Positions 14,435 to 59,290 of a DNA stretch of 64,000 bases are shown here, piece after piece (position 1 is the stretch's first letter; each line of letters starts with the position of its first letter). Location of the stretch: the NCBI GenBank assembly GCA_964638025.1, contig CAZWXW010000003.1:15126-79125 (forward strand). Direction: 5' to 3'. The position numbers and the translations under genes are program-made. This DNA comes from an uncultured Verrucomicrobiaceae bacterium. GTDB taxonomy: Bacteria; Pseudomonadota; Gammaproteobacteria; Pseudomonadales; CAMLJR01. The notes beneath the pieces are model-generated. The model was given only the letters and a program-made list of their open reading frames with translations. It was not told the origin of the DNA and ran no database searches.

Positions 14435-14556
14435 GGAACCTCTCATCAAGTCGCCTCTCCCTTCAGGGAGAGGGTTAGGGAGAGGGCGGAAGTGCGCATC
14501 AATCGACCCTCTCCCCTCTCCCTGAAGGGAGAGGGGAGAGATGCGTTTTTCCGGAA
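14435..14556. repeat. REP/MITE-like palindromic element, copy A (double hairpin), between mdtB and mdtC
   Basis: GGAACCTCTCATCAAGTCGCCTCTCCCTTCAGGGAGAGGGTTAGGGAGAGGG - spacer GTGCGCATCAATCGA - CCCTCTCCCCTCTCCCTGAAGGGAGAGGGGAGAGATGCGTTTTTCC. Confidence 0.85.
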
Positions 14557-14565
14557 GCGCCAGCG

Positions 14566-17500
14566 ATGAACTTCGCCGCGCTCTGTATTCGCCGGCCCGT
14601 CGCGACGGTATTGCTGACGCTGGCGGTGACGCTGATCGGCGCCGTCGCCTTTGTGTCGCTGCCGATCGCGTCGCTGCCACAGGTCGACATGCCGGTCATC
14701 AATGTGCAGGCGACACTGCCCGGCGCCAACGCCGAAACCATGGCGGCCACCGTCGCCACGCCGCTGGAACGGGCCATCGGCCGCATCGCCGGCATCACCG
14801 AACTGACCTCGACCAGCAACCAGGGCAACACGCGGGTCAGCGTGCAGTTCGATTTCGGTCGCAACGCCGATGCCGCCGCGCGCGAAGTGCAGGCCGCGAT
14901 CAGCGCCGCGCAGGGCGTGCTGCCGGTCAGCCTGCCGTCGGCGCCGGTCTATCGCAAAGCCAATATCGCCAGCTCGCCGGTGCTGGCGATTGCGCTGACC
15001 TCCGATTTCCGCAGCCGCGAGCAGCTCTACGATGTCGCCTTCACGCTGCTCGGACAGAAGATCGCGCAGGTGCCCGGCGTCGGCCAGATCAATGTCAACG
15101 GCAGTGCGCTGCCGGCGGTGCGCGTCGCCGTCAATCCGACCGCGCTGAGCCACTACGGTGTCGGGCTCGAACAGGTGCGCGCGGCGCTCGCCGCCGCCAA
15201 CGTCAACCAGCCGAAAGGGGTGGTCGAATCGGCGCAGCAGCAGTGGCAGATCGACATCAATGATCGCGCCCGCCGCGCCGCCGACTATCGCGATCTGATC
15301 ATCAGCTGGCACAACGGCGCGCCGGTTCGTCTCGCCGACATCGCCGATGTCAACGATTCGCTGCAGGAGCTGCGCAACGCCGGCAGCTCCAACGGCCAGC
15401 CGGCGGTGATGCTGTCGGTGTTCAACCAGCCCGGCGCCAACATCGTCGAGATGGTCGACGCCATCAAGGCGCTGCTGCCGCAGTTGCGCGGCGCGATTCC
15501 GGCCGACATTGATGTCGTCGTCAACATGGATCGCACCAGCACCATCCGCGCGACGCTGCGCGAAGTCGAGCACACGCTGCTGATCTCGATCGCGCTGGTG
15601 ATCCTGGTGGTCTACCTGTTCCTGCGCAGCGGTCGCGCCACCTTCATTCCCAGCGTGGCGATTCCGGTGTCGCTGCTGGGGACGCTGGCCGTCATCTACC
15701 TGCTCGGCTACAGCCTCAACAACCTGTCGCTGATGGCGTTGATCATCGCCACTGGCTTCGTCGTCGACGATGCCATCGTCGTGGTCGAGAACACGGCGCG
15801 ACTGATCGAGCGCGGCGTGGCGCCGACGGTGGCGGCGCTGCAGAGCCTGCGCGAAGTCGGCTTCACCGTGGTGGCGATGAGCCTGGCGCTGGTGGCGGTG
15901 CTGCTGCCGGTGCTGCTGATGGAGGGAATCATCGGCCGCCTGCTGCGCGAATTCTCGGTGACGCTGTGCATCGCCGTGCTGATCTCGCTGGTGGTGTCGC
16001 TGACCACGACGCCGATGCTGTGCGCGCAACTGCTGCGACCGCATCGGCAATCCGGGACACAGCGTGCCGGTCGGATGGCGGCGCTCGGCGACCGCATCAT
16101 TCGAGGCTACGGCACCAGCCTGTTGTGGGCACTGCGCCACCGCTGGCTGATGCTCGGTCTGCTGGCGCTGGTGGTGCTGTTGAACATCTACCTGATCGCG
16201 GTGCTGCCGAAGGGCTTCTTCCCGCAGCAGGACACCAGTCGGCTGCAGGGCAACTTCATGGCCGATCAGGCCATTTCATTCCAGGCGATGCGCGGCAAGA
16301 TCGACCAGCTGATGCGCATCGTCGCGAAGGATCCCGCCATCGAAACCTACTACGAATACACCGGCGGTGCCGGCGCCGGGCAGAACAACAGCGGCCAGAT
16401 GTTCGCGCGATTGAAGCCGCGCGATCAGCGCGATGCATCCGCCGCCGAAGTCGTTGCCCGTCTGCGGCCGCAGCTGTCGAAAGTGGCGGGCGCCACGCTG
16501 ATGCTGAATGCGCAGCAGGACATCAACGTCGGTGGCCGCCCCGGCGCGGCGCTCTATCAGTATTCATTGTTGGCCAGCGATCTCGACGAGTTGCGACAGT
16601 GGGCACCGCGCCTGCTGGAGGCGCTGCGCAAATTGCCGCAACTGACCGATGTCAGCAGCGACTGGCAGGAGCGCGGACTGCAGACCGTGCTGAAGGTCGA
16701 TCGTGCCGCCGCCGCGCGGCTGGGCATCTCCGCCGCGAAAATCGACGCGACATTGAACGATGCTTTCGGTCAGCGCCTGGTCTCGACCATCTACGAGCCG
16801 CTCAACCAGTACTACGTGGTGCTGACCTTGCGGCCGGAGTTCACGCGCGATCCGCAGGCGCTGCGCCATATCCATGTTGCCAACGAGGCGGGCGCCACCA
16901 TTCCGCTCGCCAGTTTCAGTCGCTACGAAGAGCGCAGCGCGCCGCTGGCGGTCAATCACCAGGGGCAGTTCGCGGCGGCCACGGTGTCGTTCAACCTGGC
17001 CGACGGCGTCACGCTCGGCGAGGCTTCCATGGCGATCGATAACGCTTTTCTGACACTGGCGACGCCGGGTTCGGTGCGCGGCGGCTTTGCCGGTACCGCG
17101 CAGGTGTTCCAGCAGTCGCTGCGGAATCAGCCGCTGCTGATACTGGCGGCGCTGATCACCGCCTATATCGTGCTCGGCATCCTGTATGAAAGTTTCCTGC
17201 ATCCGTTGACGATCCTGTCGACACTGCCATCGGCCGGTGTCGGCGCGCTGCTGGCGCTGGCACTGTTTGGCAGTGAGCTCAGTGTCATCGCGCTGATCGG
17301 CATCCTGCTGTTGATCGGCATCGTGATGAAGAACGCCATCATGCTGATCGACTTCGCGCTCGATGCGCGCCGCGAGCACAAGGAGACGCGCCGCGAGCAC
17401 AAGGAGACGCGCCGCGAGCATGTAGAAGAGCGCCGCGAGCACAAAGAAAATGAACGCAGCGAGCACACGAATGAACGCCACGAGCATGGCGCGGACGCAC

Positions 17501-22425: not shown

Positions 22426-22847
22426 TGGCTATCTCCAGTGCCAGTGGCGGTGAAAACGATGAAGTGCTGAGCGAGATAAACATCACGCCGATGGTCGATG
22501 TGATGTTGGTACTGCTCGTGGTATTCATCATCACCGCCCCGCTGATGACAAACTCGATCACCGTTAATTTGCCAAAGACAGACGCGACGCCGCAGTTGCA
22601 GAAGCCGGAAGAGCCGCTGGTGGTGAGTATCGACACGGCTGGGCTTGTCTACCTCGGAAAGGAAGAGGTTCCGATCGATTTCGTCGAACAGGAACTGATT
22701 GCCCGCAAGGCAAGTAATCCCGACATCAGATTGAGTCTGAATGCCGACGAGACGGTCTCCTATGGCGTGGTCGCCAAAGTGATGGTGATCATCGAGCGGG
22801 CCGGCATCGACAAGCTGTCGGTCGTCACACAGCAGGACGGCGCTTAG
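22425..22847 (+). CDS. exbD: ExbD/TolR-family protein
   Basis: ATG overlaps exbB stop (TAATG); INITPMVDVMLVLLVVFIITAP motif. Confidence 0.85.
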   Translation: MAISSASGGENDEVLSEINITPMVDVMLVLLVVFIITAPLMTNSITVNLPKTDATPQLQKPEEPLVVSIDTAGLVYLGKEEVPIDFVEQELIARKASNPDIRLSLNADETVSYGVVAKVMVIIERAGIDKLSVVTQQDGA

Positions 22848-22912
22848 GAAGTCTCTGATGAGTCCCCTCTCCTTCAGGGAGAGGGTTAGGGAGAGGGGGG
22901 GCAGAGGTTTCT
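22847..22912. repeat. REP/MITE-like element, copy B (single hairpin), fills the exbD / R2 convergent gap
   Basis: GGAAGTCTCTGATGAGTCCCCTCTCCTTCAGGGAGAGGGTTAGGGAGAGGG...GCAGAGGTTTC. Confidence 0.8.
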
Positions 22913-26128: not shown

Positions 26129-27190
26129 ATGTGGTATTACCTGATCAAGCGCCTGCTGGCGATGATCCCGACGCTGCTGGGCGTATTGACGCTGACATTC
26201 GCCGTGACGCAGTTCGTTCCTGGCGGCCCGGTCGACAACCTGCTGGCGGCGGTGGATGCGGAGGGCGCGCGCACCGGCGTCGAAGGTGGACTCAGTGGCG
26301 GCGGCTGGAGTTACAGCGGGCGCAACGGTATCGACGATTCGCAGATCGCGCACCTGACGAGCCTGTATGGGTTCGACCAGCCGCTGTGGGAGCGATACAC
26401 GCAGCTGCTCCGCAGCTTCGTCGTCTTTGATTTCGGTGACAGCTATTTTCGCAACGAGAGCGTCTGGTCGCTGATCCAGTCGAAGCTCGCCGTTTCGGTG
26501 TCGCTCGGCGTCTGGACCTTCATTCTGACCTACCTGATTTCGGTGCCGCTCGGCGTGGCGAAGGCGGTGCGCGCCGGCAGTGGCTTCGATCTCGTCACCA
26601 GCCTGCTGGTGCTGACCGGTTACGCGGTGCCCGGCTTCGTGCTCGGCGTGCTGCTGATCGTGCTGTTCGGCGGCGGCTCGTTCTGGGACATCTTTCCGCT
26701 GCGCGGGCTGACCTCGGACAACTGGCACGAGCTGAACGGCTGGGAAAAGGTTGCCGACTACCTGTGGCACGTGACGCTGCCGGTGACGGCGTCGGTGGTC
26801 AGCAGCTTCGCGCTGAAGACGCTGCTGACCAAGAACACCTTCCTCGACGAGATCCGCCGCCAGTATGTGCTGACCGCGCGCGCCAAGGGGCTGTCCGAGC
26901 GGCGGGTGCTGTGGAAGCACGTGCTGCGCAACGCGCTGCTGCCGCTGGTGACCAGCTTTCCCGGCACCTTCATCGCGGCCTTCTTCACCGGCAGCCTGCT
27001 GATCGAGACGCTGTTCTCGCTCGACGGCCTCGGCCTGCTGTCGTTCGAATCGATCAACAGCCGCGATTACCCGGTGGTGCTCGGCAGTCTCTACCTGTTC
27101 ACGCTGATCGCGCTGATCACCAAGCTGGTCGGCGACATCGCCTATGTGCTGATCGATCCCCGAATCAAGTTCGATGCCGTGGAGGCGTGA
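26129..27190 (+). CDS. PepT-family ABC importer permease, YejB-like (cassette 1)
   Basis: MWYYLIKRLLAMIPTLLGVLTLTF N-terminus typical of DppB/OppB/YejB; paralog of 47204-48268. Confidence 0.85.
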   Translation: MWYYLIKRLLAMIPTLLGVLTLTFAVTQFVPGGPVDNLLAAVDAEGARTGVEGGLSGGGWSYSGRNGIDDSQIAHLTSLYGFDQPLWERYTQLLRSFVVFDFGDSYFRNESVWSLIQSKLAVSVSLGVWTFILTYLISVPLGVAKAVRAGSGFDLVTSLLVLTGYAVPGFVLGVLLIVLFGGGSFWDIFPLRGLTSDNWHELNGWEKVADYLWHVTLPVTASVVSSFALKTLLTKNTFLDEIRRQYVLTARAKGLSERRVLWKHVLRNALLPLVTSFPGTFIAAFFTGSLLIETLFSLDGLGLLSFESINSRDYPVVLGSLYLFTLIALITKLVGDIAYVLIDPRIKFDAVEA

Positions 27191-28350
27191 TGAACACATC
27201 CATCAACCAGTCCGTCGACCTCGGCAACGCCATCGTCCTGCCGCAGGGTGGCACCGTCGGCGAGCTGGCCGGGCAGCCGGCGCGGGAGCGACTTCAGGCG
27301 GTCCGCCAGGAGTCGCCGCGGCAGCGCATCTGGCGGCGCTTCAGGAGCAATCGCCTCGGTTACTGGAGCCTGATCATCTTCTCCACGCTGTACGTGCTGA
27401 GCCTGCTCGGCGAGTTCGTCTCCAATGACAGGCCACTGCTGATCTGGCATCAGGAGCGGCTCTACTTTCCGCTGTTCAGGGATTATCCCGAGACCGATTT
27501 CGGCGGCCGGCTGCCGATCTTCGCCGACTACAACGATCCCCATATCCGCGCGCTGCTGGCGCAGCAGGGCAGCGTCGTCATCCGTGCACCGAACCCGTTC
27601 TACTACGACACGCTGAATTACTGGTCGCCCGCCGGCCACTATCCTGGTTCGCCCGACGCCGACAATCTGCTCGGCACCGATATCGCCGGCTACGACATTC
27701 TGGCGCGGCTGGTCTACGGCTTTCGTACGTCGGTCACGTTCGGGCTCGGGTTGACGCTGGTCGGCACCGGGCTCGGCGTCATCATCGGCGCGGTGCAGGG
27801 TTACTTCGCCGGCCGCGTCGATCTGGTCACGCAGCGGCTGATCGAGATCTGGGGCTCGATGCCGGAGCTCTACCTGCTGATCATCTTCTCGTCGCTGTTC
27901 GAGCCGAGCCTGATCCTGCTGTTCGCGCTGCTGTCGCTGTTCGGCTGGATTTTCCTGTCCGACTACGTGCGCGCCGAGTTCCTGCGCAACCGCCAGCTCG
28001 AATACGTCAAGGCGGCGAGGGCGATGGGGCTGTCGCACCTGCAGATCATCTGGCGCCACATCCTGCCGAACAGCCTGACGCCGGTCATCACCTTCCTGCC
28101 GTTCCGGATGAGCGCCGCGATCATGGCGCTGGCCAGCCTCGATTTCCTCGGCCTCGGCGTGAAGGCACCGGCGCCGAGCCTCGGCGGCCTGCTGCTGCAG
28201 GGCAAGGAGAACCTCGACGCCTGGTGGATCGCCGTCGCCTCGTTCTCGGTGCTGGTCGCCACGCTGTTGCTGCTGACCTTCATGGGCGAGGCGCTGCGCA
28301 ACGCGATCGACACGCGGATCGACGTCAAGCCGGACGGGAGCGCGCGATGA
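27190..28350 (+). CDS. PepT-family ABC importer permease, YejE-like (cassette 1)
   Basis: ATG 27190 overlaps upstream stop (TGATG) after GGAGG; in ORF 26764-28350; paralog of 46000-47202 (RFRSNRLGYWSLIIF, LGTDIAGYDILARL). Confidence 0.85.
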   Translation: MNTSINQSVDLGNAIVLPQGGTVGELAGQPARERLQAVRQESPRQRIWRRFRSNRLGYWSLIIFSTLYVLSLLGEFVSNDRPLLIWHQERLYFPLFRDYPETDFGGRLPIFADYNDPHIRALLAQQGSVVIRAPNPFYYDTLNYWSPAGHYPGSPDADNLLGTDIAGYDILARLVYGFRTSVTFGLGLTLVGTGLGVIIGAVQGYFAGRVDLVTQRLIEIWGSMPELYLLIIFSSLFEPSLILLFALLSLFGWIFLSDYVRAEFLRNRQLEYVKAARAMGLSHLQIIWRHILPNSLTPVITFLPFRMSAAIMALASLDFLGLGVKAPAPSLGGLLLQGKENLDAWWIAVASFSVLVATLLLLTFMGEALRNAIDTRIDVKPDGSAR

Positions 28351-29963
28351 GCGAGCCGCTATTGTCGATCGAAAACCTGAACATCGCCTTCGGCGGCAAG
28401 ACGGTCGTCGAGAATCTGAGCCTGCAGATAAACGCCGGCGAACGCGTGGCGCTGGTCGGCGAATCGGGTTCCGGAAAAACCGTTACGGCGCTGTCGATCC
28501 TGCGGCTGGTGCAGGGCGCCAGTGTCGGCGGCAGCATCCGCCTGCAGGGGCAGGAGCTGCTCACCAAGTCCGGCGAGGAGATCAGGCGCGTGCGCGGCAG
28601 CGATGTCGCGATGATCTTCCAGGAGCCGATGTCGGCGCTGAATCCGCTCTACACGATCGGCAACCAGATCATCGAGACGCTGCAGCAGCACGAGAGCCTG
28701 ACGCCGCGCGAGGCACGCGAAAAGACCATCGCGCTATTGGCGCGCACCGGCATCCGCGAACCGGAGCGGCGCGTCGACAGTTACCCGCACCAGCTCTCCG
28801 GCGGCCAGCTGCAGCGCGCCGTCATCGCGATGGCGCTGGCGTGCCGGCCGAAGCTGCTGATCGCCGACGAGCCGACCACGGCGCTGGACATGACGGTGCG
28901 CGCCCGCATCGTCAGGCTGCTGCTCGATCTGCAGCAGGAGGAGATCGAACGCAACCGGCAGCTCGGTCGGCCGGACGACGGCATGGCGATCCTGCTGATC
29001 ACGCACGACCTGAACCTGGTGCGCCGCTTCGCGCAACGGGTCGCGGTCATGGAGCACGGCGTACTGGTCGAGAGCGGCGAGCAGGAAGCGCTGTTTGCGC
29101 AGCCGCGCCATCCGTACACGATCAAGCTGCTGAACAGCATCCCGGTGCGCCGGATCGAGCCGGTCGACCGGCAGGCGCAGACGCTGCTGGCGACGCGCGA
29201 CCTGCGCGTCGAATACCCGAAGCGACGGCACGGCTGGCGCGGCCTGTTTCGCAGCGACCGCTTCGTCGCGCTCGATTCGGCTGACATCGCGCTGCGCGCC
29301 GGCGAAACGATCGGCATCGTCGGTGAATCTGGGTCGGGAAAATCGACGCTGGCGCAGGCCATTCTCGGGTTGGTGCGCACGCAGGGCGGTGAGCTGGAAT
29401 TCGAGGGCCGCTCCGAACGTCATTTCAGCCGGCGTGAAAAGCGCGCGCTGCGTTCGCGCCTGCAGGTGGTGTTCCAGGACCCGTTCGGTTCTCTGTCGCC
29501 GCGGCAGACGGTCGAGCAGATCGTCGAGGAGGGGCTGCTGCTGCACTACCCGCAGATGAGCCGGCAAGAGCGCTTCGAGCGCATTGCCGAGGTGCTCGAC
29601 AACGTTGGACTGCCGCTGTCGGCGCTCGCTGATTATCCACACGCATTTTCCGGCGGCCAGCGCCAGCGCATCGCGATCGCGCGGGCGCTGGTGCTGAAGC
29701 CGCGCGTCGTGGTGCTCGACGAACCGACATCGGCACTGGACGTGTCGATCCAGAACCAGGTGCTGCAGCTGCTGGTCGACCTGCAGAAGAAGTACGGCCT
29801 CAGCTATCTGCTGATCACGCACGACCTGCAGGTGGTCAATGCGCTGGCGCACCGGTTGTACGTGCTGAAGGACGGGCTGATCGTCGAGTCGGGCGACACC
29901 GAGCAGATCGTTGCCAACCCGCAGCACCCGTATACACGAAGCCTGATTCAGGCGTCGCTGTGA
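28347..29963 (+). CDS. Double-ABC-domain ATPase, YejF-like (cassette 1)
   Basis: ATGA overlap with upstream stop; two Walker A sites ([17 protein letters not shown]), two signatures ([16 protein letters not shown]). Confidence 0.9.
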   Translation: MSEPLLSIENLNIAFGGKTVVENLSLQINAGERVALVGESGSGKTVTALSILRLVQGASVGGSIRLQGQELLTKSGEEIRRVRGSDVAMIFQEPMSALNPLYTIGNQIIETLQQHESLTPREAREKTIALLARTGIREPERRVDSYPHQLSGGQLQRAVIAMALACRPKLLIADEPTTALDMTVRARIVRLLLDLQQEEIERNRQLGRPDDGMAILLITHDLNLVRRFAQRVAVMEHGVLVESGEQEALFAQPRHPYTIKLLNSIPVRRIEPVDRQAQTLLATRDLRVEYPKRRHGWRGLFRSDRFVALDSADIALRAGETIGIVGESGSGKSTLAQAILGLVRTQGGELEFEGRSERHFSRREKRALRSRLQVVFQDPFGSLSPRQTVEQIVEEGLLLHYPQMSRQERFERIAEVLDNVGLPLSALADYPHAFSGGQRQRIAIARALVLKPRVVVLDEPTSALDVSIQNQVLQLLVDLQKKYGLSYLLITHDLQVVNALAHRLYVLKDGLIVESGDTEQIVANPQHPYTRSLIQASL

Positions 29964-29968
29964 GCAGT

Positions 29969-30088
29969 GGCAACCTCTCCCCTCTCCCTTCAGGGAGAGG
30001 GGCCGGGGGAGAGGGTGTTCGGCGATGGCATTGCGTATTTCCCCTCTCCCTAACCCTCTCCCTTCAGGGAGAGGGGACTTGGTCAGTG
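29969..30088. repeat. REP/MITE-like element, copy C (double hairpin), after yejF-like 1
   Basis: CCTCTCCCCTCTCCCTTCAGGGAGAGGGGCCGGGGGAGAGGG ... CCCCTCTCCCTAACCCTCTCCCTTCAGGGAGAGGGGACTTGGTCAG. Confidence 0.85.
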
Positions 30089-30109
30089 CGCCCTTGAGTC
30101 CTGATGATG

Positions 30110-30145
30110 CGCTGCGCGTGTGAAGACAGCTTCACACGCGCAGCG
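30110..30145. other. 16-bp perfect-stem hairpin / inverted repeat after REP copy C
   Basis: CGCTGCGCGTGTGAAG-ACAG-CTTCACACGCGCAGCG; no U-tract follows. Confidence 0.6.
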
Positions 30146-30318
30146 AAGCATTGCCGGTAAATCACGATTTTTCAGTGAATCATTCTCTGTTTTCTTTTGC
30201 ACAAGCGCATCGGAATATCTGTTCAAAAACAACCAGCGCGTTTTTAGACGTAACTTCGTCCATCTGAAAAATCAGTGAATTTCAGCGCATTGCACGATTT
30301 TTCCATGCTTCCGAAAGT

Positions 30319-39725: not shown

Positions 39726-39752
39726 GCTGCTACCTTGAGGCATGACTATTTA

Positions 39753-44197: not shown

Positions 44198-44199
44198 CG

Positions 44200-44244
44200 C
44201 TTTCAACACAACTGTTTTCAACACAAGCACCTTCAATAACGAGT
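44200..44244. repeat. 15-bp tandem repeat x3 abutting the yejA-like 2 start codon
   Basis: CTTTCAACACAACTG / TTTTCAACACAAGCA / CCTTCAATAACGAGT on + strand; begins 3 nt from the minus-strand ATG (44197). Confidence 0.7.
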
Positions 44245-44361
44245 CTCTGATCAAGTCCCCTCTCCCTTCAGGGAGAGGGTTAGGGAGAGGGTGACAAGGC
44301 GCATGAATCGGCCCTCTCCCCCGCCCCTCTCCCTGAAGGGAGAGGGGAGAAATGCGTTCCA
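44241..44361. repeat. REP/MITE-like element, copy F (double hairpin), between yejF-like 2 and yejA-like 2
   Basis: GAGTCTCTGATCAAGTCCCCTCTCCCTTCAGGGAGAGGGTTAGGGAGAGGG - GCGCATGAATCGG - CCCTCTCCCCCGCCCCTCTCCCTGAAGGGAGAGGGGAGAAATGCGTT. Confidence 0.85.
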
Positions 44362-44395
44362 TAACGAAATCGACATGGCCGCTTCCACGCGCGCT

Positions 44396-46003
44396 CTACA
44401 GAGAGGCGCGAACCAGAGCCTGGGTATAGGGATGGCGCGGCGCGGCGATGACGGATTCGGTATCGCCTTCTTCGACCACTTCGCCATCGCGCAGCACGTA
44501 GAGCCGGTGCGCCAGGGCATTCACCACGGCGAGGTCGTGGCTGATGAGCAGGTAACTGAGGCCGTATTTCTTCTGCAGCCCCACCAGCAGTTCCAGCACC
44601 TGATTCTGTATCGACACATCCAGTGCGGAGGTGGGTTCATCCAGTACCAGCACACGCGGTTTCAGTACGACCGCGCGCGCGATGGCGATGCGTTGACGCT
44701 GCCCGCCGGAGAACTGGTGCGGGTAGGACGACAGCACGGACGCGGGCAGCCCGACTTCGGTCAACACCTCGATGACACGGGCGTGGCGCTGTTCGGCTGA
44801 AAGCTCCGGGAAATGCAGCGCCAATCCTTCGCCGACGATCTGCTCCACGGTTCGCCGGGGAGAGAGCGAGCCGAACGGATCCTGGAAAACCACCTGCAGG
44901 CGCGCTCGCAGCGCGCGATGCTCGGCGCGGCGGCGCTCGGCGATATCGCGACCCTCGAAATCGATTTCTCCACCCCTGGCGCGTACCAGGCCGAGAATGG
45001 CCTGGGCCAGCGTGGACTTGCCGGAGCCGGATTCGCCGACCACGCCGATGGTCTCCCCCTGACGCAGTTTCACCGTCGCGCCAGCCAGCGCGACGAAGGC
45101 GTCGTTGAAGAACAGGCCTTTCCAGCCCGGTCTCTTTTTGGGGTACTCCACGCGCAGCTGCCGTGTCTCCATCAGTGTCGGAGCATCGACCGGCACCGCC
45201 GCTATTTGCCGTTGCGGCAGGCTGTTGATGAGCTTGATGGTGTAGGGATGGCTCGGTGCCGCGAACAGCGCTTCGGTTTCACCGGTCTCAACCAGATGAC
45301 CATGCTCCATCACCGCCACGCGCTGCGCGAAGCGCCGCACCAGGTTCAGGTCGTGAGTGATGAGCAGGATCGCCATCGGCTCGCCGTTGCGCGTGCTCTC
45401 CTCCTGCAGCTCCAGCAGCAGCTTGACGATGCGCGCGCGCACCGTGGTATCCAGCGCCGTGGTCGGTTCATCGGCGATCAACAGCTTGGGTTTGCAGGCC
45501 AGTGCCATGGCGATGACGGCGCGCTGCAACTGTCCGCCGGAGAGCTGATGCGGAAAGCTGTCCACGCGCCGCTCCGGTTCGCGCACGCCGGTGCGCACCA
45601 GCAGCTCGATGGCCTTGGCGCGTGCCGCGGCGCCACTCAACCCTTCGTGCAGAGTCAGGCTTTCGATGATCTGGTTGCCGATGGTGTAGAGCGGATTCAG
45701 CGCCGACATCGGTTCCTGGAAAATCACGGCCACGTCTCTGCCGCGCACATGACGCAACTCTTCCTCGCTTTTGCCGACCAGGTCATCGCCCTGGAAGCGG
45801 ATGCTGCCGCTGATGCGGGCCTGCTGCACCAGACGCAGGATGGAGAGGGCGCTGATGGTCTTGCCGGAGCCGGATTCGCCCACCAGCGCCAGACGTTCGC
45901 CGGGCTGGATTTCAAGATTGAGTCCGTGCACGACGCGCTTGCGGCCGAACTGAATGGAGACGTTCTGCCACTGCAGCAGCGGAGGCTTCACCGCCGTATT
46001 CAT
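44396..46003 (-). CDS. Double-ABC-domain ATPase, YejF-like (cassette 2)
   Basis: 535 aa; two [17 protein letters not shown] Walker A sites, LSGGQLQR and FSGGQRQR. Confidence 0.9.
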   Translation of the reverse strand: MNTAVKPPLLQWQNVSIQFGRKRVVHGLNLEIQPGERLALVGESGSGKTISALSILRLVQQARISGSIRFQGDDLVGKSEEELRHVRGRDVAVIFQEPMSALNPLYTIGNQIIESLTLHEGLSGAAARAKAIELLVRTGVREPERRVDSFPHQLSGGQLQRAVIAMALACKPKLLIADEPTTALDTTVRARIVKLLLELQEESTRNGEPMAILLITHDLNLVRRFAQRVAVMEHGHLVETGETEALFAAPSHPYTIKLINSLPQRQIAAVPVDAPTLMETRQLRVEYPKKRPGWKGLFFNDAFVALAGATVKLRQGETIGVVGESGSGKSTLAQAILGLVRARGGEIDFEGRDIAERRRAEHRALRARLQVVFQDPFGSLSPRRTVEQIVGEGLALHFPELSAEQRHARVIEVLTEVGLPASVLSSYPHQFSGGQRQRIAIARAVVLKPRVLVLDEPTSALDVSIQNQVLELLVGLQKKYGLSYLLISHDLAVVNALAHRLYVLRDGEVVEEGDTESVIAAPRHPYTQALVRASL

Positions 46004-47202
46004 CGCGACACCTCCAGTTGCAGCGCGGCAACAGGCGCGACATCGGCCTCTTCTTCATCCGGCACATCGTCATGCAGGTTGTCGGCAATGCGGATGTCCA
46101 GCGCATTGCGCAGGGCTTCACCCATGAAGGTCAACAGCAGCAGCGTGGAGACCAGCACGGTGAATGCACCCAGTGAAATCCACCAGGCATCGAGATTGGA
46201 TTTGCCCTGCTGCAGCAGCTGCCCGAGGCTCGGCGAATGGGCGCCCACGCCGAGCCCGAGAAAATCCAGGCTCGCCAGCGCCATGATGGAACCGCTCATG
46301 CGGAACGGCAGGAAGGTGATGACCGGCGTCAGCGAGTTCGGCAGGATGTGTCGCCAGATGATCTGCCCATGCGACAGCCCCATGGTCTGTGCCGCCTTGA
46401 CGAATTCGAGCTGACGGTTGCGCAGGAATTCCGTGCGCATGTAGTCGGACAAGCCTATCCAGCTGAACAGCGATAACAGGATGAACAGCAGGAGCAGCGA
46501 CGGCTCGAATATCGAAACGAAAATGATCAGCAGGTAAAGCTCGGGCATCGAGCCCCAGATTTCGATCAGACGTTGTGCAAACAGATCCAGCTTGCCGGCG
46601 AAATAGCCCTGCACGGCGCCGATGATGATGCCGAAGACAGTACCCACCAGCGTCAGCACCAGCCCGAAGGTCACCGAGACACGAAAGCCATACAGCAGGC
46701 GGGCAGTGAGGTCGTAACCGGAGATATCCGTGCCCAGCCAGTTCTCGCGGCTGGGTGGGCCGGGGTTGTGGTGCCCCGACGAAAAATAATTCAGCGTGTT
46801 GTAGTAGTAGAGATTCAGCGGCGCAATCACGAACACGCCGGGCCGGTTCAGGTTCTGCTTGATGACGGGGTCGTTGAAATCGGTCTTGATCGGCAGGTCG
46901 CCGCCGAACACCGTTTCCGGGTAGTCCTTGAACAGCGGGAAATACCACTGCTGTTCGTAATGAACCACCAGCGGCCGGTCGTTGGAGATCAACTCGCCGC
47001 ACAGGCTGATGCCGTAGAGGAACAGGAAGATGATGAGGCTCCAGTAACCGAGCCGGTTGCTCTTGAAGCGCAGCCAGATGCGTCGGCTCGGCGATATCGT
47101 GGCGTCGGTCTCCGGCGGCGTCTCCCTGCGGCGCAGGGATTGCCACAGATAGCGGAGTCGCAACGGAAACCCGGTGATGGAGGTCGTGGTGGGAGCGCTC
47201 AT
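46000..47202 (-). CDS. PepT-family ABC importer permease, YejE-like (cassette 2)
   Basis: ATG 47202 with AGGAGG 6 nt upstream (ORF extends to 47220); paralog of 27190-28350. Confidence 0.85.
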   Translation of the reverse strand: MSAPTTTSITGFPLRLRYLWQSLRRRETPPETDATISPSRRIWLRFKSNRLGYWSLIIFLFLYGISLCGELISNDRPLVVHYEQQWYFPLFKDYPETVFGGDLPIKTDFNDPVIKQNLNRPGVFVIAPLNLYYYNTLNYFSSGHHNPGPPSRENWLGTDISGYDLTARLLYGFRVSVTFGLVLTLVGTVFGIIIGAVQGYFAGKLDLFAQRLIEIWGSMPELYLLIIFVSIFEPSLLLLFILLSLFSWIGLSDYMRTEFLRNRQLEFVKAAQTMGLSHGQIIWRHILPNSLTPVITFLPFRMSGSIMALASLDFLGLGVGAHSPSLGQLLQQGKSNLDAWWISLGAFTVLVSTLLLLTFMGEALRNALDIRIADNLHDDVPDEEEADVAPVAALQLEVSR

Positions 47203-47203
47203 C

Positions 47204-48268
47204 TCATGCCTCCTGGGCATCGAACTTGATGCGGGGATCGACGAACACGTAGGCGATATCTCCCAGCAGCTTTATCAGCAGGCCAATCAGCGTGAAGAGG
47301 TAAAGCGCGCCCAGCACGATGGGATAGTCGCGACTGTTGATGGCTTCGTAGGAGAGCAGCCCGAGACCGTCCAGCGAGAACAGCGTCTCGATCAGCAGGC
47401 TGCCGGTGAGAAATGCACCGATGAAGGCGCTGGGAAAACCGGTCACCAGTGGCAGCAGCGTGTTGCGGAAGACGTGTTTCCATAGCACGCGACGCTCGGA
47501 CAACCCCTTGGCGCGCGCTGTCATGACATATTGGCGGCGGATCTCTTCGAGAAAGGTGTTCTTGGTCAGCAGTGTCTTGATCGCGAAACTGCTTACCACC
47601 GACGCGGTGACCGGCAGGGTGACGTGCCACAGATAGTCGGTAATCCTGGCGAAGAAACCCAACTCTTCCCAGTTGTCCGACACCAGGCCGCGCAGCGGAA
47701 AGACGTCCCAGAACGAGCCGCCGCCGAACAGCACGATGAGCAGCACGCCCAGTACGAAGCCCGGCACGGCATAGCCGAACAGCACGACGAGGCTGCTGAT
47801 GAAATCGAAGCGGCTGCCCGCCTTGACCGCCTTCGCCACGCCCAGTGGCACCGCGATCAGGTAGGTGAGAAGCAGAGTCCACACCCCGAGGGCCACGGTC
47901 ACACCCAGCTTGTCCTTGATCAGGCTCCAGACACTTTCGCTGCGGAAATAACTTTCACCGAGATCGAAGTGCAGGAAATTGCCAACCATTTGCACATAGC
48001 GCTGCAACAGCGGTTTGTCGAAGCCGTAGAACTCCGTCAGCTGCTCCACCTGCTGCACATCGATGCCCTTTCGCCCGCTGTAATTCCAGCCGCCGGTGGC
48101 GGATGCTCCGCCATCGGTACCGGTTCGGCCGGACTCGGCATTGATCGAGGCGAGCGTGTGCTCCACCGGACCACCCGGCACGAACTGGGTGACCAGGAAG
48201 GTCAGCGTCAGCACACCGAACAGGGTGGGAATCATGATGACCAGGCGTTTCAGCAGGTAGGACCACAT
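47204..48268 (-). CDS. PepT-family ABC importer permease, YejB-like (cassette 2)
   Basis: ATG 48268 gives MWSYLLKRLVIMIPTLFGVLTLTF, matching 26129 copy; ORF start 48316 lies inside a hairpin. Confidence 0.85.
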   Translation of the reverse strand: MWSYLLKRLVIMIPTLFGVLTLTFLVTQFVPGGPVEHTLASINAESGRTGTDGGASATGGWNYSGRKGIDVQQVEQLTEFYGFDKPLLQRYVQMVGNFLHFDLGESYFRSESVWSLIKDKLGVTVALGVWTLLLTYLIAVPLGVAKAVKAGSRFDFISSLVVLFGYAVPGFVLGVLLIVLFGGGSFWDVFPLRGLVSDNWEELGFFARITDYLWHVTLPVTASVVSSFAIKTLLTKNTFLEEIRRQYVMTARAKGLSERRVLWKHVFRNTLLPLVTGFPSAFIGAFLTGSLLIETLFSLDGLGLLSYEAINSRDYPIVLGALYLFTLIGLLIKLLGDIAYVFVDPRIKFDAQEA

Positions 48269-48300
48269 GGCGGCGGGGTACTTGGTTTTTTTCCGTGGAT

Positions 48301-48337
48301 AAAAGGCCCGGCGCACTGACTGGTTGAGTGCCGGGCC
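48301..48337 (-). terminator. Hairpin plus T-run between the DszA-like gene and yejB-like 2 (terminator or attenuator)
   Basis: Minus strand GGCCCGGCACT-CAACCAGTC-AGTG(CG)CCGGGCC followed by TTTTA; only about 32 nt remain before ATG 48268. Confidence 0.45.
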
Positions 48338-53995: not shown

Positions 53996-54026
53996 TCAGG
54001 TTCGCGGTATCAAGTCGGAGATGGCA

Positions 54027-54066
54027 GGCAGGGCTTTCGGGTTGGCCGAAGCCCTGCCCGCTTTTT
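54027..54066 (+). terminator. Rho-independent terminator after TBDR3
   Basis: GGCAGGGCTT(T)CGG-GTTGG-CCGAAGCCCTGCC (13 bp, one bulge) followed by CGCTTTTT. Confidence 0.65.
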
Positions 54067-54923
54067 CACGACAAACTCTTTTTCAGGAATGCAATCGTCC
54101 GCGACCACGCCAGCTCGGCAGATGCCTTGTCGTAGCGCGCGGCGGAGGTGTCGTTGTTGAAGGCGTGGTTCGCGCCTTCATAAATGAACAGCGCGTACTT
54201 CTTGTTCGCCGCCTTCAGCGCCTGCTCGAAAGCGGGAATGCCCTCGTTGATACGCTGGTCCAGTCCGGCGTAGTGCAGTTGCAGCGGCGCCTGAATCTTT
54301 TCCACATCGCCACTGGCGGGCTGCCGGCCGTAGTAGACGACGCCGGCATTCAGCGCCGGGTCGTGTACCGCCAGTTCGCCGACCTTGCCGCCGCCCCAGC
54401 AGAAGCCGACAGCGCCGACACGACCGTTGCCGCGCGGATGTGTCGCCAGAAACTGTCGCGCAGCCAGCAGGTTCTTTCGGGTAACGCCGGCATCGAGATT
54501 GGCAATCAGTTCGCGCGCCGCATCCTCGTCGGTGGGCGTGCCGCCTGTCGGTGACAGGAAGTCGGGTGCCAGCGCCAGGAATCCCGCGGCCGCGAATCGG
54601 CGCGCCACGTCTTCGATGTGTGCATTCAACCCGCGATTTTCATGGATGACGATGACGGCCGGCAGTGCGTTGTCACCCTTTGGCTGGGCCAGATAGCCGT
54701 TGAATTCGGCGTTGTCGGGAATGGCAACGCGCTGCGTTTGCAGGCGCGGGTCGGTGTCGGCGATGACCGTGGCGGCGGAGGTATTGGCCGCCAGCAGCGG
54801 CAGCAGCGTGGCGGCACAGGCAGTGCTGCCGGAAAGGCGCGCGAGACGCGCCATGAAGCTGCGTCGGTCGAGTGCGGTGTGAGTGAATTCGTCGTAGAGG
54901 TCGATCATGGCTTGGCTGATCAC
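54066..54923 (-). CDS. Dienelactone hydrolase family protein with Tat-type signal
   Basis: DRRSFMARLARL twin-Arg motif; AVIVIHENRGLNAHIEDVARR, GAVGFCWGG nucleophile elbow, GANHAF. Confidence 0.8.
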   Translation of the reverse strand: MISQAMIDLYDEFTHTALDRRSFMARLARLSGSTACAATLLPLLAANTSAATVIADTDPRLQTQRVAIPDNAEFNGYLAQPKGDNALPAVIVIHENRGLNAHIEDVARRFAAAGFLALAPDFLSPTGGTPTDEDAARELIANLDAGVTRKNLLAARQFLATHPRGNGRVGAVGFCWGGGKVGELAVHDPALNAGVVYYGRQPASGDVEKIQAPLQLHYAGLDQRINEGIPAFEQALKAANKKYALFIYEGANHAFNNDTSAARYDKASAELAWSRTIAFLKKSLS

Positions 54924-54997
54924 GAGGCAACTCCTTTATTTGCAATCGGTGTGGATGAATGTCGAGTTGATACAGCTATTCCTTCAGTAAGTTCTTC

Positions 54998-55013
54998 AGC
55001 ACATGCCGTGCCA
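54998..55013 (-). promoter_or_regulatory. Candidate sigma-54 promoter upstream of the dienelactone hydrolase gene
   Basis: Minus strand reads TGGCACGGCATGTGCT (closest to the TGGCACG-N4-TTGCW consensus); 75 nt upstream of start 54923. Confidence 0.55.
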
Positions 55014-55092
55014 CGACGCCCTGGCATCTGCAAGTGGAGCCAGGCGCGCGGATATTGTCACCGGTCACTGATCGCTCTGGGCTAGCCAGAAA

Positions 55093-56490
55093 ATGGTGGT
55101 CTGGTTAATCTGGATGCCAATCAGCGAAGGCTGCTCTTTCATCCTCCCCGCGCAACCAGAACAGGCGAGAACAACCCAATTGATTTTTGATAAAAACGAA
55201 CAGGCCGCCGCGGTCCACAAACGCTGGGTGACCGGCGAGATCTTCGGCCTTGAAATTCCGGCCGATGCCGAGACGCTGCTCTCGGGCGGCGCAGACTTTC
55301 TCACCAGGGCTTTTCATGCCTCCGGCGCACTGGCCGCCAACAACCGGGTTGGTCGTATCGTCGAGGCGGAAGAGTTCATTGGGGGCGGCACCGGTAGAAA
55401 GTTGTTGCTGAATTTGGTGTACGAATTGCCGGCGCCGGAATTACCCGAACAGCTGTTCATCAAGTTTTCGCGGAATTTCGACAACGAGCTGTGGGACAGG
55501 GCGCGCTTCATGATGATCTCGGAAGCGAATTTTGCCGTGCTGTCCAGGTCGCCGGACTTCCCTGTTGCCGTACCTGCCTGCCTGTTCGCCGACGTCGAGC
55601 CGGAGTCCGGCACCGGGCTCATTATTACCGAATGCATAACCTATGGCCGCAACGGTGTGGAGGCCCTCTATCCCAAGTGCATGGATTACAACTTGCCTGA
55701 GCCGGTGGAGCACTACAAAGCCATTTTGAAGGGTCTGGCAAGGTTATCGGGAGCACACCGGGGTGGAAGGTTGTCGACAGACGTTGACAAGAAATTCCCC
55801 TACAGCCGAGAGCAGTCCTCGGCGGTGTTTGCAATTCGTACCCCGGAAGAGAAGTTGATACAGCGCGCAAACCGGATGTTTGATTTTATCGAGCGCTATC
55901 CGAAGCTGTTTCCGGAAAACGTGCGGGGACCAGAGTTTCGCGAGCAATTTATTCGTGATATTCCCGATGTGGTTGCCGCAGAGGGCCGGATAAGGGAAGT
56001 GCTGTACGGCAATCCCGAACTGATCGCCTTCGCGCACTGGAATGCCAATATCGATAACTGCTGGTTCTGGCGGGACGCGGAAGGCGTATTGCAATGCGGT
56101 TTCATGGATTGGGCAAATGCCGGTCAAATCAGCGTGGCTCAGTCCGTTAGCGGCGCGATCAGCGGTGCCGAGCCGTTTGTATGGAATGAGCATCTGGACG
56201 AACTGTTGAATGTGTTTGTCGAGGAGTACGCGGCCCAGGGCGGCGCACGACTGAGCATCGACGAATTGAAACTTCACATCCTGTTGATCGTTGCGGTATC
56301 CGGCGTGGCTTATTCGATGGCTGCCCCCATGGCCATCGAGCGGGACATCGAGGATATCGACGCCGTTGAAAGCTATCGGGATGACTGCTTCCGTGAACAT
56401 GAGAACGCCAGAATTCAGCTGCACATGATGACGAAAATGCTCAACGTGTGGCAGGCGCGGAAGCTGGGCGATGTGGTTCGCGGGCTTTAA
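55093..56490 (+). CDS. Hypothetical protein with APH/choline-kinase-like phosphotransferase fold (atypical catalytic loop)
   Basis: 465 aa; LFIKFSR (beta3 Lys-like), AHWNANIDNCWFW in place of HxDxxxxN, FMDWANAG in place of DFG/IDW; start uncertain (ATG 55114 alternative); lower GC than neighbours. Confidence 0.55.
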   Translation: MVVWLIWMPISEGCSFILPAQPEQARTTQLIFDKNEQAAAVHKRWVTGEIFGLEIPADAETLLSGGADFLTRAFHASGALAANNRVGRIVEAEEFIGGGTGRKLLLNLVYELPAPELPEQLFIKFSRNFDNELWDRARFMMISEANFAVLSRSPDFPVAVPACLFADVEPESGTGLIITECITYGRNGVEALYPKCMDYNLPEPVEHYKAILKGLARLSGAHRGGRLSTDVDKKFPYSREQSSAVFAIRTPEEKLIQRANRMFDFIERYPKLFPENVRGPEFREQFIRDIPDVVAAEGRIREVLYGNPELIAFAHWNANIDNCWFWRDAEGVLQCGFMDWANAGQISVAQSVSGAISGAEPFVWNEHLDELLNVFVEEYAAQGGARLSIDELKLHILLIVAVSGVAYSMAAPMAIERDIEDIDAVESYRDDCFREHENARIQLHMMTKMLNVWQARKLGDVVRGL

Positions 56491-56493
56491 AGG

Positions 56494-57879
56494 TCAGAGG
56501 CTTTCGATGATCCGCTGGGCAAGCGCTCTGGCATGCACACGCAGTTCCGGCACCGCCATCGCTTCCCAGTAACGCGCGCGCAACATCGGCCCGAGGTAAT
56601 GCAGGCCATCAATGGCGTTGCCATCGCGGCCGATCGGTCGATAGGCATCGTCGATTTGCAGTCCCATCTTCAGTGAATCCGCACACAGGTAGCCGTCGTC
56701 GCGAAGCTGGGCGATCAGCGCTGTCGCGCTGTTGTCGATGTCGAAGTTCGGTCCGGTGCAGTTGATGACGGCGGCAGCCGTGAGCGCGCGCGTGTTGCCG
56801 GTGGCGCGTTCGCGGATCTCGACCTGAACGCGATTGCCGGCCGTTGCGATGCTGCGAATGCGCCCGGCCACGATCTGCAGCTGACCGCGCTGCTGCATGC
56901 TGCGCAGGCGCTGTGCGGCGATCGGCGCGAGCCGATGGCGATGGATGTCCCAGTAGGTAGCGAGATGAACGAGGAAACGACTGCGCTGTGGTGGCGGCAG
57001 GTGCTGCCAGAGCTCGGGCGTGTACGGCCGCAATTCGTTGATGACATCGCGCCAGTTGCCACCGCTGCCGGTGCGCAGCGCCACTTCATGGCGTATCGCG
57101 CGCAGGTGGGCGAGGGCGGTCAGCGGAATCGACTGCAGATAGGCGGGGAACTCGCTCGCTGCCGGCGGATGGGGGCGTGTGCGGTGGCTGCGCGGCAGAT
57201 GGCCGCGCCGCGATACCAGCAGCAATTTGCAGGTGTCGTTGCGGCTGGTCAGGCGAAAGGCGGTATCGATGGCGGTGAGCCCGCTGCCGATGATGACGAT
57301 CGGAAGGTTGTCGTCATCCGATTCGATCGTCTGCTGCTCCCAGCCATCGTCAATGGTGCTGGCTGTGCCATTGAGCAGCAGCGGTTTGCACGCCGAGTAT
57401 CCGTGTGCCAGCACGACACGATTGGCGCCGACGACCTGGCCGTCGGCCAGTTCAACCGCGAACGATGACGGCGACTGCAGACGCCTGACAGCGACGGCTT
57501 CGCCATGCAGCCGGGTCAGCGGCACCGCGCTGTCGCGCTCGGCCTGGCGCAGTGTCCACACCAGGTAGTCGCCATAGATGCGCCGTGAAATGAACGAACC
57601 GGGATCGATCGACGGGTCGATGGCGCGACAGTAGTCGAGGAAGTGCGTCGGTTCGTCGGCCAGCGCGCTCATGTTGCCGGCCGGCACGTTCAGCAGCAGG
57701 TTGTCGTCCGAGGTGGAGTAGGCGAGCCCGCGCGCCATGCGCGCGCGCCGTTCGATCAGCAGCAGTTGCAGCGGACGGCTGCCAGCGGCGCGCAGCAGCT
57801 GCACGGCTGTCAGCGCGCCACTGAAGCCGGCGCCGATGATGACGACTCGCATCGCGGCGCCGGGGCCGGCATTACTCAT
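56494..57879 (-). CDS. FAD/NAD(P)-binding oxidoreductase (YdhS-like)
   Basis: ORF 56494-57888; ATG 57879 or 57852; Rossmann motif RVVIIGAGFSGALTA; second dinucleotide motif IVIIGSGLTAID. Confidence 0.7.
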   Translation of the reverse strand: MSNAGPGAAMRVVIIGAGFSGALTAVQLLRAAGSRPLQLLLIERRARMARGLAYSTSDDNLLLNVPAGNMSALADEPTHFLDYCRAIDPSIDPGSFISRRIYGDYLVWTLRQAERDSAVPLTRLHGEAVAVRRLQSPSSFAVELADGQVVGANRVVLAHGYSACKPLLLNGTASTIDDGWEQQTIESDDDNLPIVIIGSGLTAIDTAFRLTSRNDTCKLLLVSRRGHLPRSHRTRPHPPAASEFPAYLQSIPLTALAHLRAIRHEVALRTGSGGNWRDVINELRPYTPELWQHLPPPQRSRFLVHLATYWDIHRHRLAPIAAQRLRSMQQRGQLQIVAGRIRSIATAGNRVQVEIRERATGNTRALTAAAVINCTGPNFDIDNSATALIAQLRDDGYLCADSLKMGLQIDDAYRPIGRDGNAIDGLHYLGPMLRARYWEAMAVPELRVHARALAQRIIESL

Positions 57880-57985: not shown

Positions 57986-59170
57986 TCAGCCGGCGGCGGC
58001 ACTCCGCAGTTCGCCGGCCGCTGCAGGCGTGCTGCCATGCCCGCGCACCAGCGGCAACACCTCTTCGCCGACCCGGTAGGCCTCTTCGAGATGGGGTGTG
58101 CTGGCGAGGATGAAGGCGTCGGCACCGAGCCGGACCAGATCGTCGAGCCGCTCCGCCACCTGCTCGTAACTGCCGACGATGCCGTTGGTCTGGCCGCCGC
58201 GCAGCAGGCTGAAGCCGGACCAGACATTGGGTTCGATGATGAAGTCGCGATAGCTGTTGATGGTGCCGGGGCGGAAGTTGCCCTGCCGCGCCGCGCCCAC
58301 CGAATCGCCGCCGCCTTCGGCCCGCCGCTTCAGTGCGGCCAGTGCCTCTGGTGACAGGTTGTCGAAGCCGCGCCGGATTTCATCCCAGGCCTCCTCCTCG
58401 GTGGGGCGGGCGATGATGTCGACGCGCACGGCGCAGCGGATCTTGCGGCCGAGCGCGGCGGTTTTCTCCTTGACGCGATCGAACTTCTCCTTGAGCTGCG
58501 CGAACGGTTCCAGCCAGCTCAGATAGAAATCGGCGTGTTGCGATGCGGAGACCAGCGCCGCATCGGACGAGCCGGAGAAATAGATCTCCGGAAACGCTTC
58601 GTGCGACAGCAGTGGCGGCAGGCCGGCATGCTCGACCTGATAGAACTTGCCGTCGTAGCTGAACGGACCGCCGCTCCAGATGCCGCGCAGCACGTCGAGA
58701 AATTCGGTGGTGCGGTTGTAGCGCGCATCGTGACCGGCCGAGTCGCCCCACCACAGTTGCGACGGACCGCCGCCGCCGGTGATGACATTGAACAGGGCGC
58801 GGCCGCCGGTGGCGCGCTGCAGGCTGGCGGTCATGCGCGCCGCCGTCACCGGATTCAGGAAGCCGGGCTGGAACGCAATCATGAAACGGAAGGTGCTGGT
58901 TTCACGCGCCAGAAATGACGATATCGCCCACGGTTCGTCGGTCATCGGAAACGAGGGCAGCAGGCCGCCCTGAAAGCCGGAAATTTCCGCGGCGCGAGCG
59001 ATTTCGGCCAGATAGTCGGCGTAGCTGAAGCCGTCGGCGCGGCCGCCACTGAGGCCGGGTTTGGTTTGGGCATCGCTGGCCGGTGACCAGTCGCCGCGAA
59101 ACGGATCGCGACGGCGCAGCGAAACGGGCTCACCGTGGGTTGGCAGGCGCCAGAAGATATCGATGGTCAT
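57986..59170 (-). CDS. LLM-class FMNH2-dependent monooxygenase, SsuD-family
   Basis: MTIDIFWRLPTHGE, FMIAFQPG, GRALFNVITG, YFSGSSDAA, PNVWSGFSLLRGG, VGSYEQVAERL, PHLEEAYRVGEEVLPL. Confidence 0.85.
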   Translation of the reverse strand: MTIDIFWRLPTHGEPVSLRRRDPFRGDWSPASDAQTKPGLSGGRADGFSYADYLAEIARAAEISGFQGGLLPSFPMTDEPWAISSFLARETSTFRFMIAFQPGFLNPVTAARMTASLQRATGGRALFNVITGGGGPSQLWWGDSAGHDARYNRTTEFLDVLRGIWSGGPFSYDGKFYQVEHAGLPPLLSHEAFPEIYFSGSSDAALVSASQHADFYLSWLEPFAQLKEKFDRVKEKTAALGRKIRCAVRVDIIARPTEEEAWDEIRRGFDNLSPEALAALKRRAEGGGDSVGAARQGNFRPGTINSYRDFIIEPNVWSGFSLLRGGQTNGIVGSYEQVAERLDDLVRLGADAFILASTPHLEEAYRVGEEVLPLVRGHGSTPAAAGELRSAAAG

Positions 59171-59192
59171 AGCGGTTCTCCAAGAGCGTAAT

Positions 59193-59290
59193 GGTCAAGT
59201 CCCCTCTCCCTTCAGGGAGAGGGTCAGGGAGAGGGGAGTGCGCACGAATCGGCCCTCTCCCTTCAGGGAGAGGGGCGAGATGCGTAGGAC
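59193..59290. repeat. REP/MITE-like element, copy G (double hairpin), between the two tandem LLM genes
   Basis: GGTCAAGTCCCCTCTCCCTTCAGGGAGAGGGTCAGGGAGAGGGG - GTGCGCACGAATCGG - CCCTCTCCCTTCAGGGAGAGGGGCGAGATGCGT. Confidence 0.85.

Follow-up and report, generated by a model that had tools for sequence, protein, structure and literature searches.

We analysed a 64,000-nucleotide stretch of DNA from an uncultured Verrucomicrobiaceae bacterium placed by GTDB in the Pseudomonadales (GenBank assembly GCA_964638025.1, contig CAZWXW010000003.1, positions 15,126 to 79,125 of the forward strand; hereafter the window), in which short palindromic repeats, likely members of the BoxC family known from E. 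coli, are scattered between transporter, monooxygenase and other genes. A first-pass annotation had listed eight copies and read them as a family of repetitive extragenic palindromic (REP) or MITE (miniature inverted-repeat transposable element) type; all eight loci were found again at the positions it had given, and all are intergenic, as it had said. A feature that it overlooked is that each hairpin belongs to a three-arm unit, made of a C-rich arm, a G-rich arm and a second G-rich arm in the order CCCTCTCCC, loop, GGGAGAGGG, short loop, GGGAGAGGG, where the third arm reads TTA-GGGAGAGGG (type A) or GCGG/GCCGG-GGGAGAGGG (type B). A full element of about 100-130 bp is an inverted pair of one type A and one type B unit with a spacer of 20-30 nt between them. 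The copies and their parts are given below (SBP, substrate-binding protein; LLM, luciferase-like monooxygenase; MFS, major facilitator superfamily; TIR, terminal inverted repeat).

E1, 14435-14556, plus strand: full doublet at the junction of MdtB-like and MdtC-like genes.
E1, type A unit (TTA loop), 14453-14486: one mismatch in the C arm; spacer GCGCATCAATCG.
E1, B half, 14507-14535: loop joining the third arm to the hairpin deleted (CCCTCTCCCCTCTCCC); right end GAGAGATGCGTTTTTC.
E2, 22847-22912, plus strand: deletion derivative between convergent ExbD/TolR-like and sigma-54 activator genes.
E2, parts retained: left TIR GGAAGTCTCTGA, type A three-arm unit whose C arm has lost 1 nt, and TIR-like right end GCAGAGGTTTC; spacer and B half missing.
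E3, 29969-30088, minus strand: full doublet with a divergent spacer at a YejF-like ATPase / SBP junction.
E3, units: type B at 29980-30015 (plus) and type A at 30042-30075 (minus).
E4, 36463-36594, minus strand: full doublet with imperfect TIRs at an SsuA-like SBP / LLM junction.
E4, units: type B at 36488-36522 (plus) and type A at 36543-36576 (minus).
E5, 38966-39030, plus strand: 65-bp short form (left end, one hairpin, right end) between convergent MFS and histidine-phosphatase genes.
E6, 39753-39776, minus strand: remnant, derived from the A-side end and reading GGCTCTGATCAAGTCTCCTCTCCCGC on the minus strand.
E7, 44241-44361, plus strand: full doublet at a YejF-like ATPase / SBP junction, both genes on the minus strand.
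E7, units: type A at 44258-44291 (plus) and type B at 44312-44346 (minus).
E8, 59193-59290, plus strand: doublet lacking the B third arm at an LLM / LLM junction, genes on the minus strand.
E8, parts: 59202-59235, type A unit with a TCA loop; 59253-59274, hairpin B.

The hairpin CCCTCTCCC-N4-GGGAGAGGG, in which the core between the arms reads T..A (CCCTCTCCC-T..A-GGGAGAGGG), occurs at 11 sites in the window against 0.01 expected from dinucleotide-preserving shuffles; the search pattern, CCCTCTCCCTNNNGGGAGAGGG with up to 3 mismatches, returned 22 strand hits for these 11 sites because the hairpin core is palindromic. The 9-mer GGGAGAGGG occurs 32 times (0.41 expected), and since all 32 lie inside the listed loci the inventory of the window is complete: five doublets (E1, E3, E4, E7 and E8), the half element E2, the single-hairpin E5 and the remnant E6. 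Repeat detection put all loci into one family, with 87-95% pairwise identity among copies and a density, for this window only, of 8 loci in 64 kb. Both orientations are represented, five copies on the plus and three on the minus strand, and every copy is found 0-34 nt after a stop codon.

Read in its own orientation, a full copy starts with the left end GGAAYCTCTGATCAAGT, which is conserved on the A side, followed by hairpin A (CCCCTCTCCC-TTCA-GGGAGAGGG), TTA and the second G arm GGGAGAGGG; after the spacer come CCCTCTCCC, CCG or CCGGC, hairpin B (CCCCTCTCCC-TGAA-GGGAGAGGGG) and the right end AGAAATGCGTTTTTCAGAGGTTCC, conserved on the B side; the two ends are asymmetric. All five doublets follow this order of A unit, spacer and B unit, with part of the B half deleted in E1 and in E8. 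In E7 the spacer, about 20 nt long, reads exactly GCGCATGAATCGG; it carries one mismatch in E4 and E8 and two in E1, and is different in E3. Of the first-pass description of a hairpin doubled around a conserved spacer, the doubling holds for all five doublets and the spacer for these four copies; the two halves are units of different type, and E3 departs from the spacer. The outermost 11 bp are inverted repeats, perfect in the 65-bp form E5 as had been noted (GGAACCTCTGA / TCAGAGGTTCC) and imperfect in E2, E4 and the allele of E4 in a relative (L150, see below); the outer TIR is absent on one side of E7 and unrecognisable in E3 and E8. The two hairpins of a doublet are near-identical and stand as direct repeats 67 bp apart, and the arm GGGAGAGGG is mirror-symmetric, as a triplex motif requires. 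By Watson-Crick pairing alone, a single strand of a doublet is predicted to form a long hairpin of about 34 bp; its folding energy is -72 to -79 kcal/mol for RNA and about -40 kcal/mol for DNA, and the z-scores range from -5.6 to -7.2.

These features recall an element described by Holder et al. (2015, Nucleic Acids Research), in which the E. coli BoxC repeat, named in E. coli work of the 1990s and re-described as the PIT element by Maher and colleagues in 2000, is presented as an intrastrand triplex motif under the name TM-ECO (PMC4666352). The published pattern, CCCTCNCCC-N3-6-GGGNGAGGG-N3-GGGNGAGGG with one mismatch allowed, has 3610 occurrences in 262 proteobacterial genomes; it comes as type A (second loop TTA) and type B (CCG), and inverted doublets always join an A to a B (PMC4666352). 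TM-ECO is always intergenic, shows neither strand bias nor association with a gene class, and in E. coli is not associated with phages or plasmids (PMC4666352). As an isolated strand it forms a very stable purine-motif triplex by circular dichroism (CD) and nuclear magnetic resonance (NMR), and its loci vary to an unusual degree between E. coli strains, showing a 'palindrome effect' whereby a doublet collapses to one hairpin (PMC4666352).

The window copies agree with this description in most respects. Seven strict three-arm units match the published pattern once the second loop is allowed to be 2-5 nt long; the four type A units among them are an exact N3 fit (TTA or TCA), and E1 and E2 carry one defect each. 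Besides being intergenic in every case, the copies sit among genes as varied as those for efflux, ExbD, ABC transport, monooxygenases, an MFS transporter and a phosphatase. Four doublets of E. coli K-12 could be aligned with the five window doublets, with matching arms, the same succession of A, spacer and B, and similar flanking sequence beyond the arms on both sides; this argues for common descent of the whole doublet, beyond a shared motif. Two other candidates were set aside: similarity to the Rhizobium RIME repeats was dropped after the match to the published triplex motif, and a G-quadruplex reading of GGGAGAGGGTTAGGGAGAGGG was dropped as the published NMR data favour a triplex for the E. 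coli sequence (PMC4666352).

When species-representative genomes were scanned for pairs of G arms separated by 2-5 nt, at least 120 loci matched. Among the 120 matches listed, 73 contain a complete three-arm unit and 10 an inverted doublet, and most come from Alpha-, Beta- and Gammaproteobacteria. The left end specific to this subfamily, CTGATCAAGTCCCCTCTCCC, is rare, with 3 contigs in a metagenome scan, too few for an analysis of termini or targets, and a plasmid collection gave no close match to the window. Complete three-arm units were also seen outside the Proteobacteria, going by label, in the isolates Leptolyngbya sp. PCC 6406 and Geomesophilobacter sediminis, in a closed Phycisphaerales chromosome from a metagenome-assembled genome (MAG) and in several MAGs of other phyla; the loci so labelled are L108, L067, L092, L025, L038, L053, L089, L101, L105 and L123, and those beyond the two isolates and the closed chromosome may reflect MAG contamination. 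The hairpin is present on 24 IMG/VR contigs (L001-L024), 15 of them with the full three-arm unit and some with 3 copies; these contigs may be true phages or host fragments. At two loci of public assemblies, L029 (6300-6400) and L071 (about 280-400, minus strand), long runs of G/C homopolymer come after the motif, in L029 together with a run of N, which may reflect sequencing or assembly trouble at the structure.

The first-pass annotation had favoured a REP or REPIN family mobilised by a REP-associated tyrosine transposase (RAYT). Two inverted palindromic units that enclose a spacer and fold into a long hairpin are indeed the REPIN layout, and many intergenic copies in both orientations and without target-site duplication are what transposition by an HUH Y1 enzyme would be expected to leave. 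However, no GTAG or CGTC tag was present at the hairpin foot of any doublet, and the search for a RAYT gene that the annotation had proposed, made by tblastn with E. coli RayT, gave no match in the window, itself a part of the source genome, or in motif-bearing loci totalling 1.23 Mb. RAYTs are single-copy genes, and the REPs linked to E. coli RayT are a repeat family different from BoxC. Unbiased clustering of the genes neighbouring the motif recovered only generic ABC ATPases as recurrent among the 120 matches listed. The GTAG/CGTC tag is the hallmark of most RAYT-linked REPs (PMC3733652). Moreover, the arm sequence is common to E. coli and organisms as far away as distant phyla, whereas REPIN-RAYT systems are described as mostly inherited vertically within individual lineages. 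We consider RAYT-driven mobilisation of these elements very unlikely.

We recovered DNA orthologous to the window from uncultured relatives through exact and near-exact protein look-ups. One relative, GCA_964386045.1, contributed the loci L147 and L149 and is 82-90% identical to window positions 39855-63905, yet its 28.5 kb contain no copy of the G-arm 9-mer GGGAGAGGG; L148 comes from a second relative. E8 is absent from L147, where the LLM/LLM spacer is 31 nt, and from L148, where the spacer is similarly short. E7 is absent from L149, the empty site placing the limits of the element at about GAGTCTCTGATCAAGT...GAGAAATGCG, and the equivalent junction in the more distant L152 measures only 15 nt. 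E3 is missing from L151, with 35 nt against 136 nt in the window, and E5 is missing after the MFS gene in L150 and L152. The E4 site is filled by the doublet in the window, by one hairpin with the same two ends in L150 and L151, and by an unrelated spacer without element in L152; the doublet and the single hairpin, the long and the short form, are thus alleles. A deletion between the two hairpins would leave the short form, since these near-identical sequences act as direct repeats 67 bp apart, and the difference matches the 'palindrome effect' reported for E. coli (PMC4666352).

Comparison of filled with empty sites at E3, E7 and E8 revealed no target-site duplication, which the first-pass annotation had suggested looking for; E7 does have short direct repeats next to it, but L149 carries these in its empty site too. 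Inspection by eye of E2, E4 and E5 for a possible TA duplication likewise showed none, the E4 junction being less clear because its flanking sequence differs between genomes. This bears on whether the copies form a classical MITE, that is, an internally deleted insertion sequence whose DDE transposase recognises the 11-bp TIRs. The perfect TIRs of E5, the imperfect ones of E2, E4 and the L150 allele, and the retention of two ends by the deletion derivatives E2 and E5 all fit such an origin. The missing duplications speak against it, as do the lack of an outer TIR on one side of E7 within the limits set by its empty site, the lack of an obvious outer TIR in the aligned flanks of the E. coli members (judged by eye only), and the absence of a transposase gene near the motif among the 120 matches listed; the TIRs may be just the outer part of one long palindrome. 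A classical MITE thus appears most improbable. Of the combined REP/MITE label, what survives is a family of dispersed intergenic palindromes with short and long forms, and neither the RAYT-linked nor the classical MITE part.

The first-pass suspicion of a recombinogenic family was supported, in the sense of recombinogenic or unstable DNA, by the presence and absence of copies between relatives, by the doublet collapsed in a relative and by a remnant at a synteny break. Synteny with L150 breaks at 38938 and synteny with L149 at about 39855, flanking E5 and E6, and the E6 remnant lies about 80 nt beyond the end of the L149 synteny.

Between E5 and E6 lies a 216-aa histidine-phosphatase gene (39093-39743, minus strand; segment 38966-39813). 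In L152-154 a convergent ABC exporter gene comes 85 nt after the MFS gene, and E5, the histidine-phosphatase gene and E6 are all missing; the segment 38966-39813 looks like a small gene island bounded by elements. A second block, 53996-56530, comprising a dienelactone-hydrolase-family gene (54066-54923, minus strand) and a 465-aa open reading frame (ORF; 55093-56490), is not at this place in L147, and in L149 its hydrolase gene (14380-15233) sits behind the ABC exporter. The borders of this relocated block carry no element remnants; a TIR-like GGAATTTCTGATCAGGTTC at 53986 was rejected as a remnant, being the coding end of a TonB receptor gene and probably a chance match.

Taken together, we consider it likely that the window repeats are members of the BoxC / PIT / TM-ECO family, and that they are unstable, probably mobile DNA of a selfish or neutral kind rather than regulators. 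Several observations weigh against this. Three type B units have a second loop of 4-5 nt (GCGG, GCCGG) instead of the published 3 nt. The triplex has escaped detection in vivo even in E. coli (PMC4666352), so that it may be irrelevant and the hairpin sufficient. Sites with a single comparator fit loss in the relative as well as gain in the window, only E7 and E8 having two outgroups, and exact insertion points and small duplications could be blurred because the intergenic DNA beside the elements also differs. Lastly, no mobilising gene was found in the window or near the motif loci among the matches listed.

With the repeats read as BoxC-type elements, their history may be pictured as follows. 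The family would have multiplied recently in this lineage, its copies persisting only in short spacers just after stop codons, where they would be harmless; they would be tolerated there because, as we propose, the element neither starts nor stops transcription. By analogy with the E. coli strand, each half may form the published purine-motif intrastrand triplex, and hairpin or triplex folds on single-stranded DNA would promote slippage, deletion and nearby rearrangement. Slippage between the two hairpins would delete the middle and leave the 65-bp one-hairpin form, other deletions would produce halves and remnants, and rearrangement breakpoints would gather nearby. Copying would probably proceed via a single-stranded, structured intermediate, with an enzyme acting in trans. 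Two things suggest this: copies are cleanly present or absent without target duplication, and deletion derivatives keep both ends. It is the least secure part of the argument. A bolder version, which strikes us as rather unlikely, holds that the BoxC-type element is mobile, transposes actively and is recognised by its structure through a so far unidentified mobilising enzyme, that a recent burst has occurred here, and that the three-arm fold of single-stranded DNA is the recognition signal. If transposition were active, and the burst had taken place beside a sister with no copy in the orthologous DNA, the responsible gene could be found by subtracting the two genomes.

Short spacers between co-directional genes hold six of the eight copies, the other two lie between convergent genes, and some copies end 10-22 nt ahead of the next start codon. 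The gene labels of the first-pass annotation (mdtB|mdtC, yejF|yejA twice, LLM|LLM) proved broadly right. Such placement, along with the high stability predicted for the hairpins as RNA, would suit an RNA element selected by the host, in which a hairpin between two cistrons keeps 3' exonucleases off the upstream mRNA or adjusts how the next gene is translated. We hold this to be improbable, and the first-pass suggestion that the elements may set differential mRNA stability within these operons found no support. Sister-genome junctions dispense with the element, with spacers of 31 nt, 15 nt and about 35 nt, and copies occur in both orientations relative to transcription, including the two between convergent genes. 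Of the 10 terminator-like sites in 29500-45000 none falls within an element, and no element scored for a terminator-like or promoter-like signature. Rfam has no corresponding family: there was no match at gathering thresholds, and the E-value mode returned only generic long-hairpin (microRNA precursor) matches far under threshold. In E. coli, too, tests of the elements showed no promoter, terminator or RNA-polymerase effects (PMC4666352).

The elements also affect gene calling. At window 44198-44257, the SBP call of the source annotation (P0122, 623 aa) starts at a TTG inside the end of E7, 20 aa upstream of the start of P0123, its ortholog in a relative (603 aa), which begins at an ATG 20 codons downstream (MRFFVLFLL...). 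Judged from these sequences, the P0122 start was probably mis-called through the element. The elements thus mislead gene callers, as the first-pass annotation had noticed, giving spurious ORFs and, in the source annotation, a 20-aa N-terminal extension.

One further proposal of that annotation, that the elements may have mediated the duplication of gene cassettes, was rejected. The paralogous ABC/LLM cassettes are 68-77% identical whereas the elements are 87-95% identical to each other, and no element is present in the orthologous cassette of the relative. The duplications thus came first and the elements later.

The region 24600-63900 as a whole is a patchwork of paralogous sulfur-scavenging-type modules with 68-82% nucleotide identity to each other. 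Three of its ABC cassettes are YejABEF-like (about 26129-32329, 42383-48316 and 60386-63905), and alongside them are several monooxygenases of the LLM/alkanesulfonate type, binding proteins resembling SsuA/NMT1 and three TonB-dependent receptors. Elsewhere, near its 3' end, the MdtC-like gene contains an in-frame 21-nt tandem repeat (17366-17488, 3.8 copies, Tandem Repeats Finder (TRF) score 121) that encodes RREHKET-type repeats and interrupts the match to the MdtC model.

The kind of element is already known, having been described as BoxC in E. coli. New here are the density, the element-free sister DNA, the three copies absent in relatives (E3, E7 and E8), the allelic long and short forms, the remnant at a synteny break and the flanks shared with K-12. 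The window adds a dense lineage beside a sister without the family, pairs of filled and empty sites, and a locus at which long and short forms are allelic, which together make the mobility and decay of the family directly testable by comparative genomics.

Among known systems, the ERIC repeats and the Correia/NEMIS MITEs of Neisseria resemble the window elements in their size of about 65-130 bp, their TIRs, intergenic insertion, co-transcription with neighbouring genes and long and short variants. Correia elements duplicate a TA target, whereas for the window elements no target-site duplication was seen and no parent insertion sequence was found; to our knowledge, neither ERIC nor Correia/NEMIS has a polypurine/polypyrimidine three-arm core. 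REPINs with their RAYT (Bertels and Rainey 2011, PMC3116915) share the inverted palindromic units around a spacer, the long hairpin, the intergenic position, singlets as decay products and the lack of target duplication. They differ from the window elements, which have no GTAG/CGTC tag, no RAYT in the DNA searched, halves of two different types and an arm sequence that is common to distant taxa rather than lineage-specific. The closest likeness is to E. coli BoxC, in the arm sequences, the three-arm unit, the A (TTA) and B loops and the A+B inverted doublets; in the strictly intergenic position without strand bias or a linked transposase; in the association with indels and the collapse of doublet to single hairpin; and in the outer flanks, CTC.GATC.AGTCCCC on the A side and GGGAGAAA.GCG on the B side. 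In contrast to E. coli BoxC, the window subfamily has GGGAGAGGG as third arm where E. coli mostly has GGGTGAGGG, a type B loop of 4-5 nt against 3 nt, extra ends with 11-bp TIRs, and a local density, 8 loci in 64 kb, far above that of E. coli K-12 with its 23 units in 4.6 Mb.

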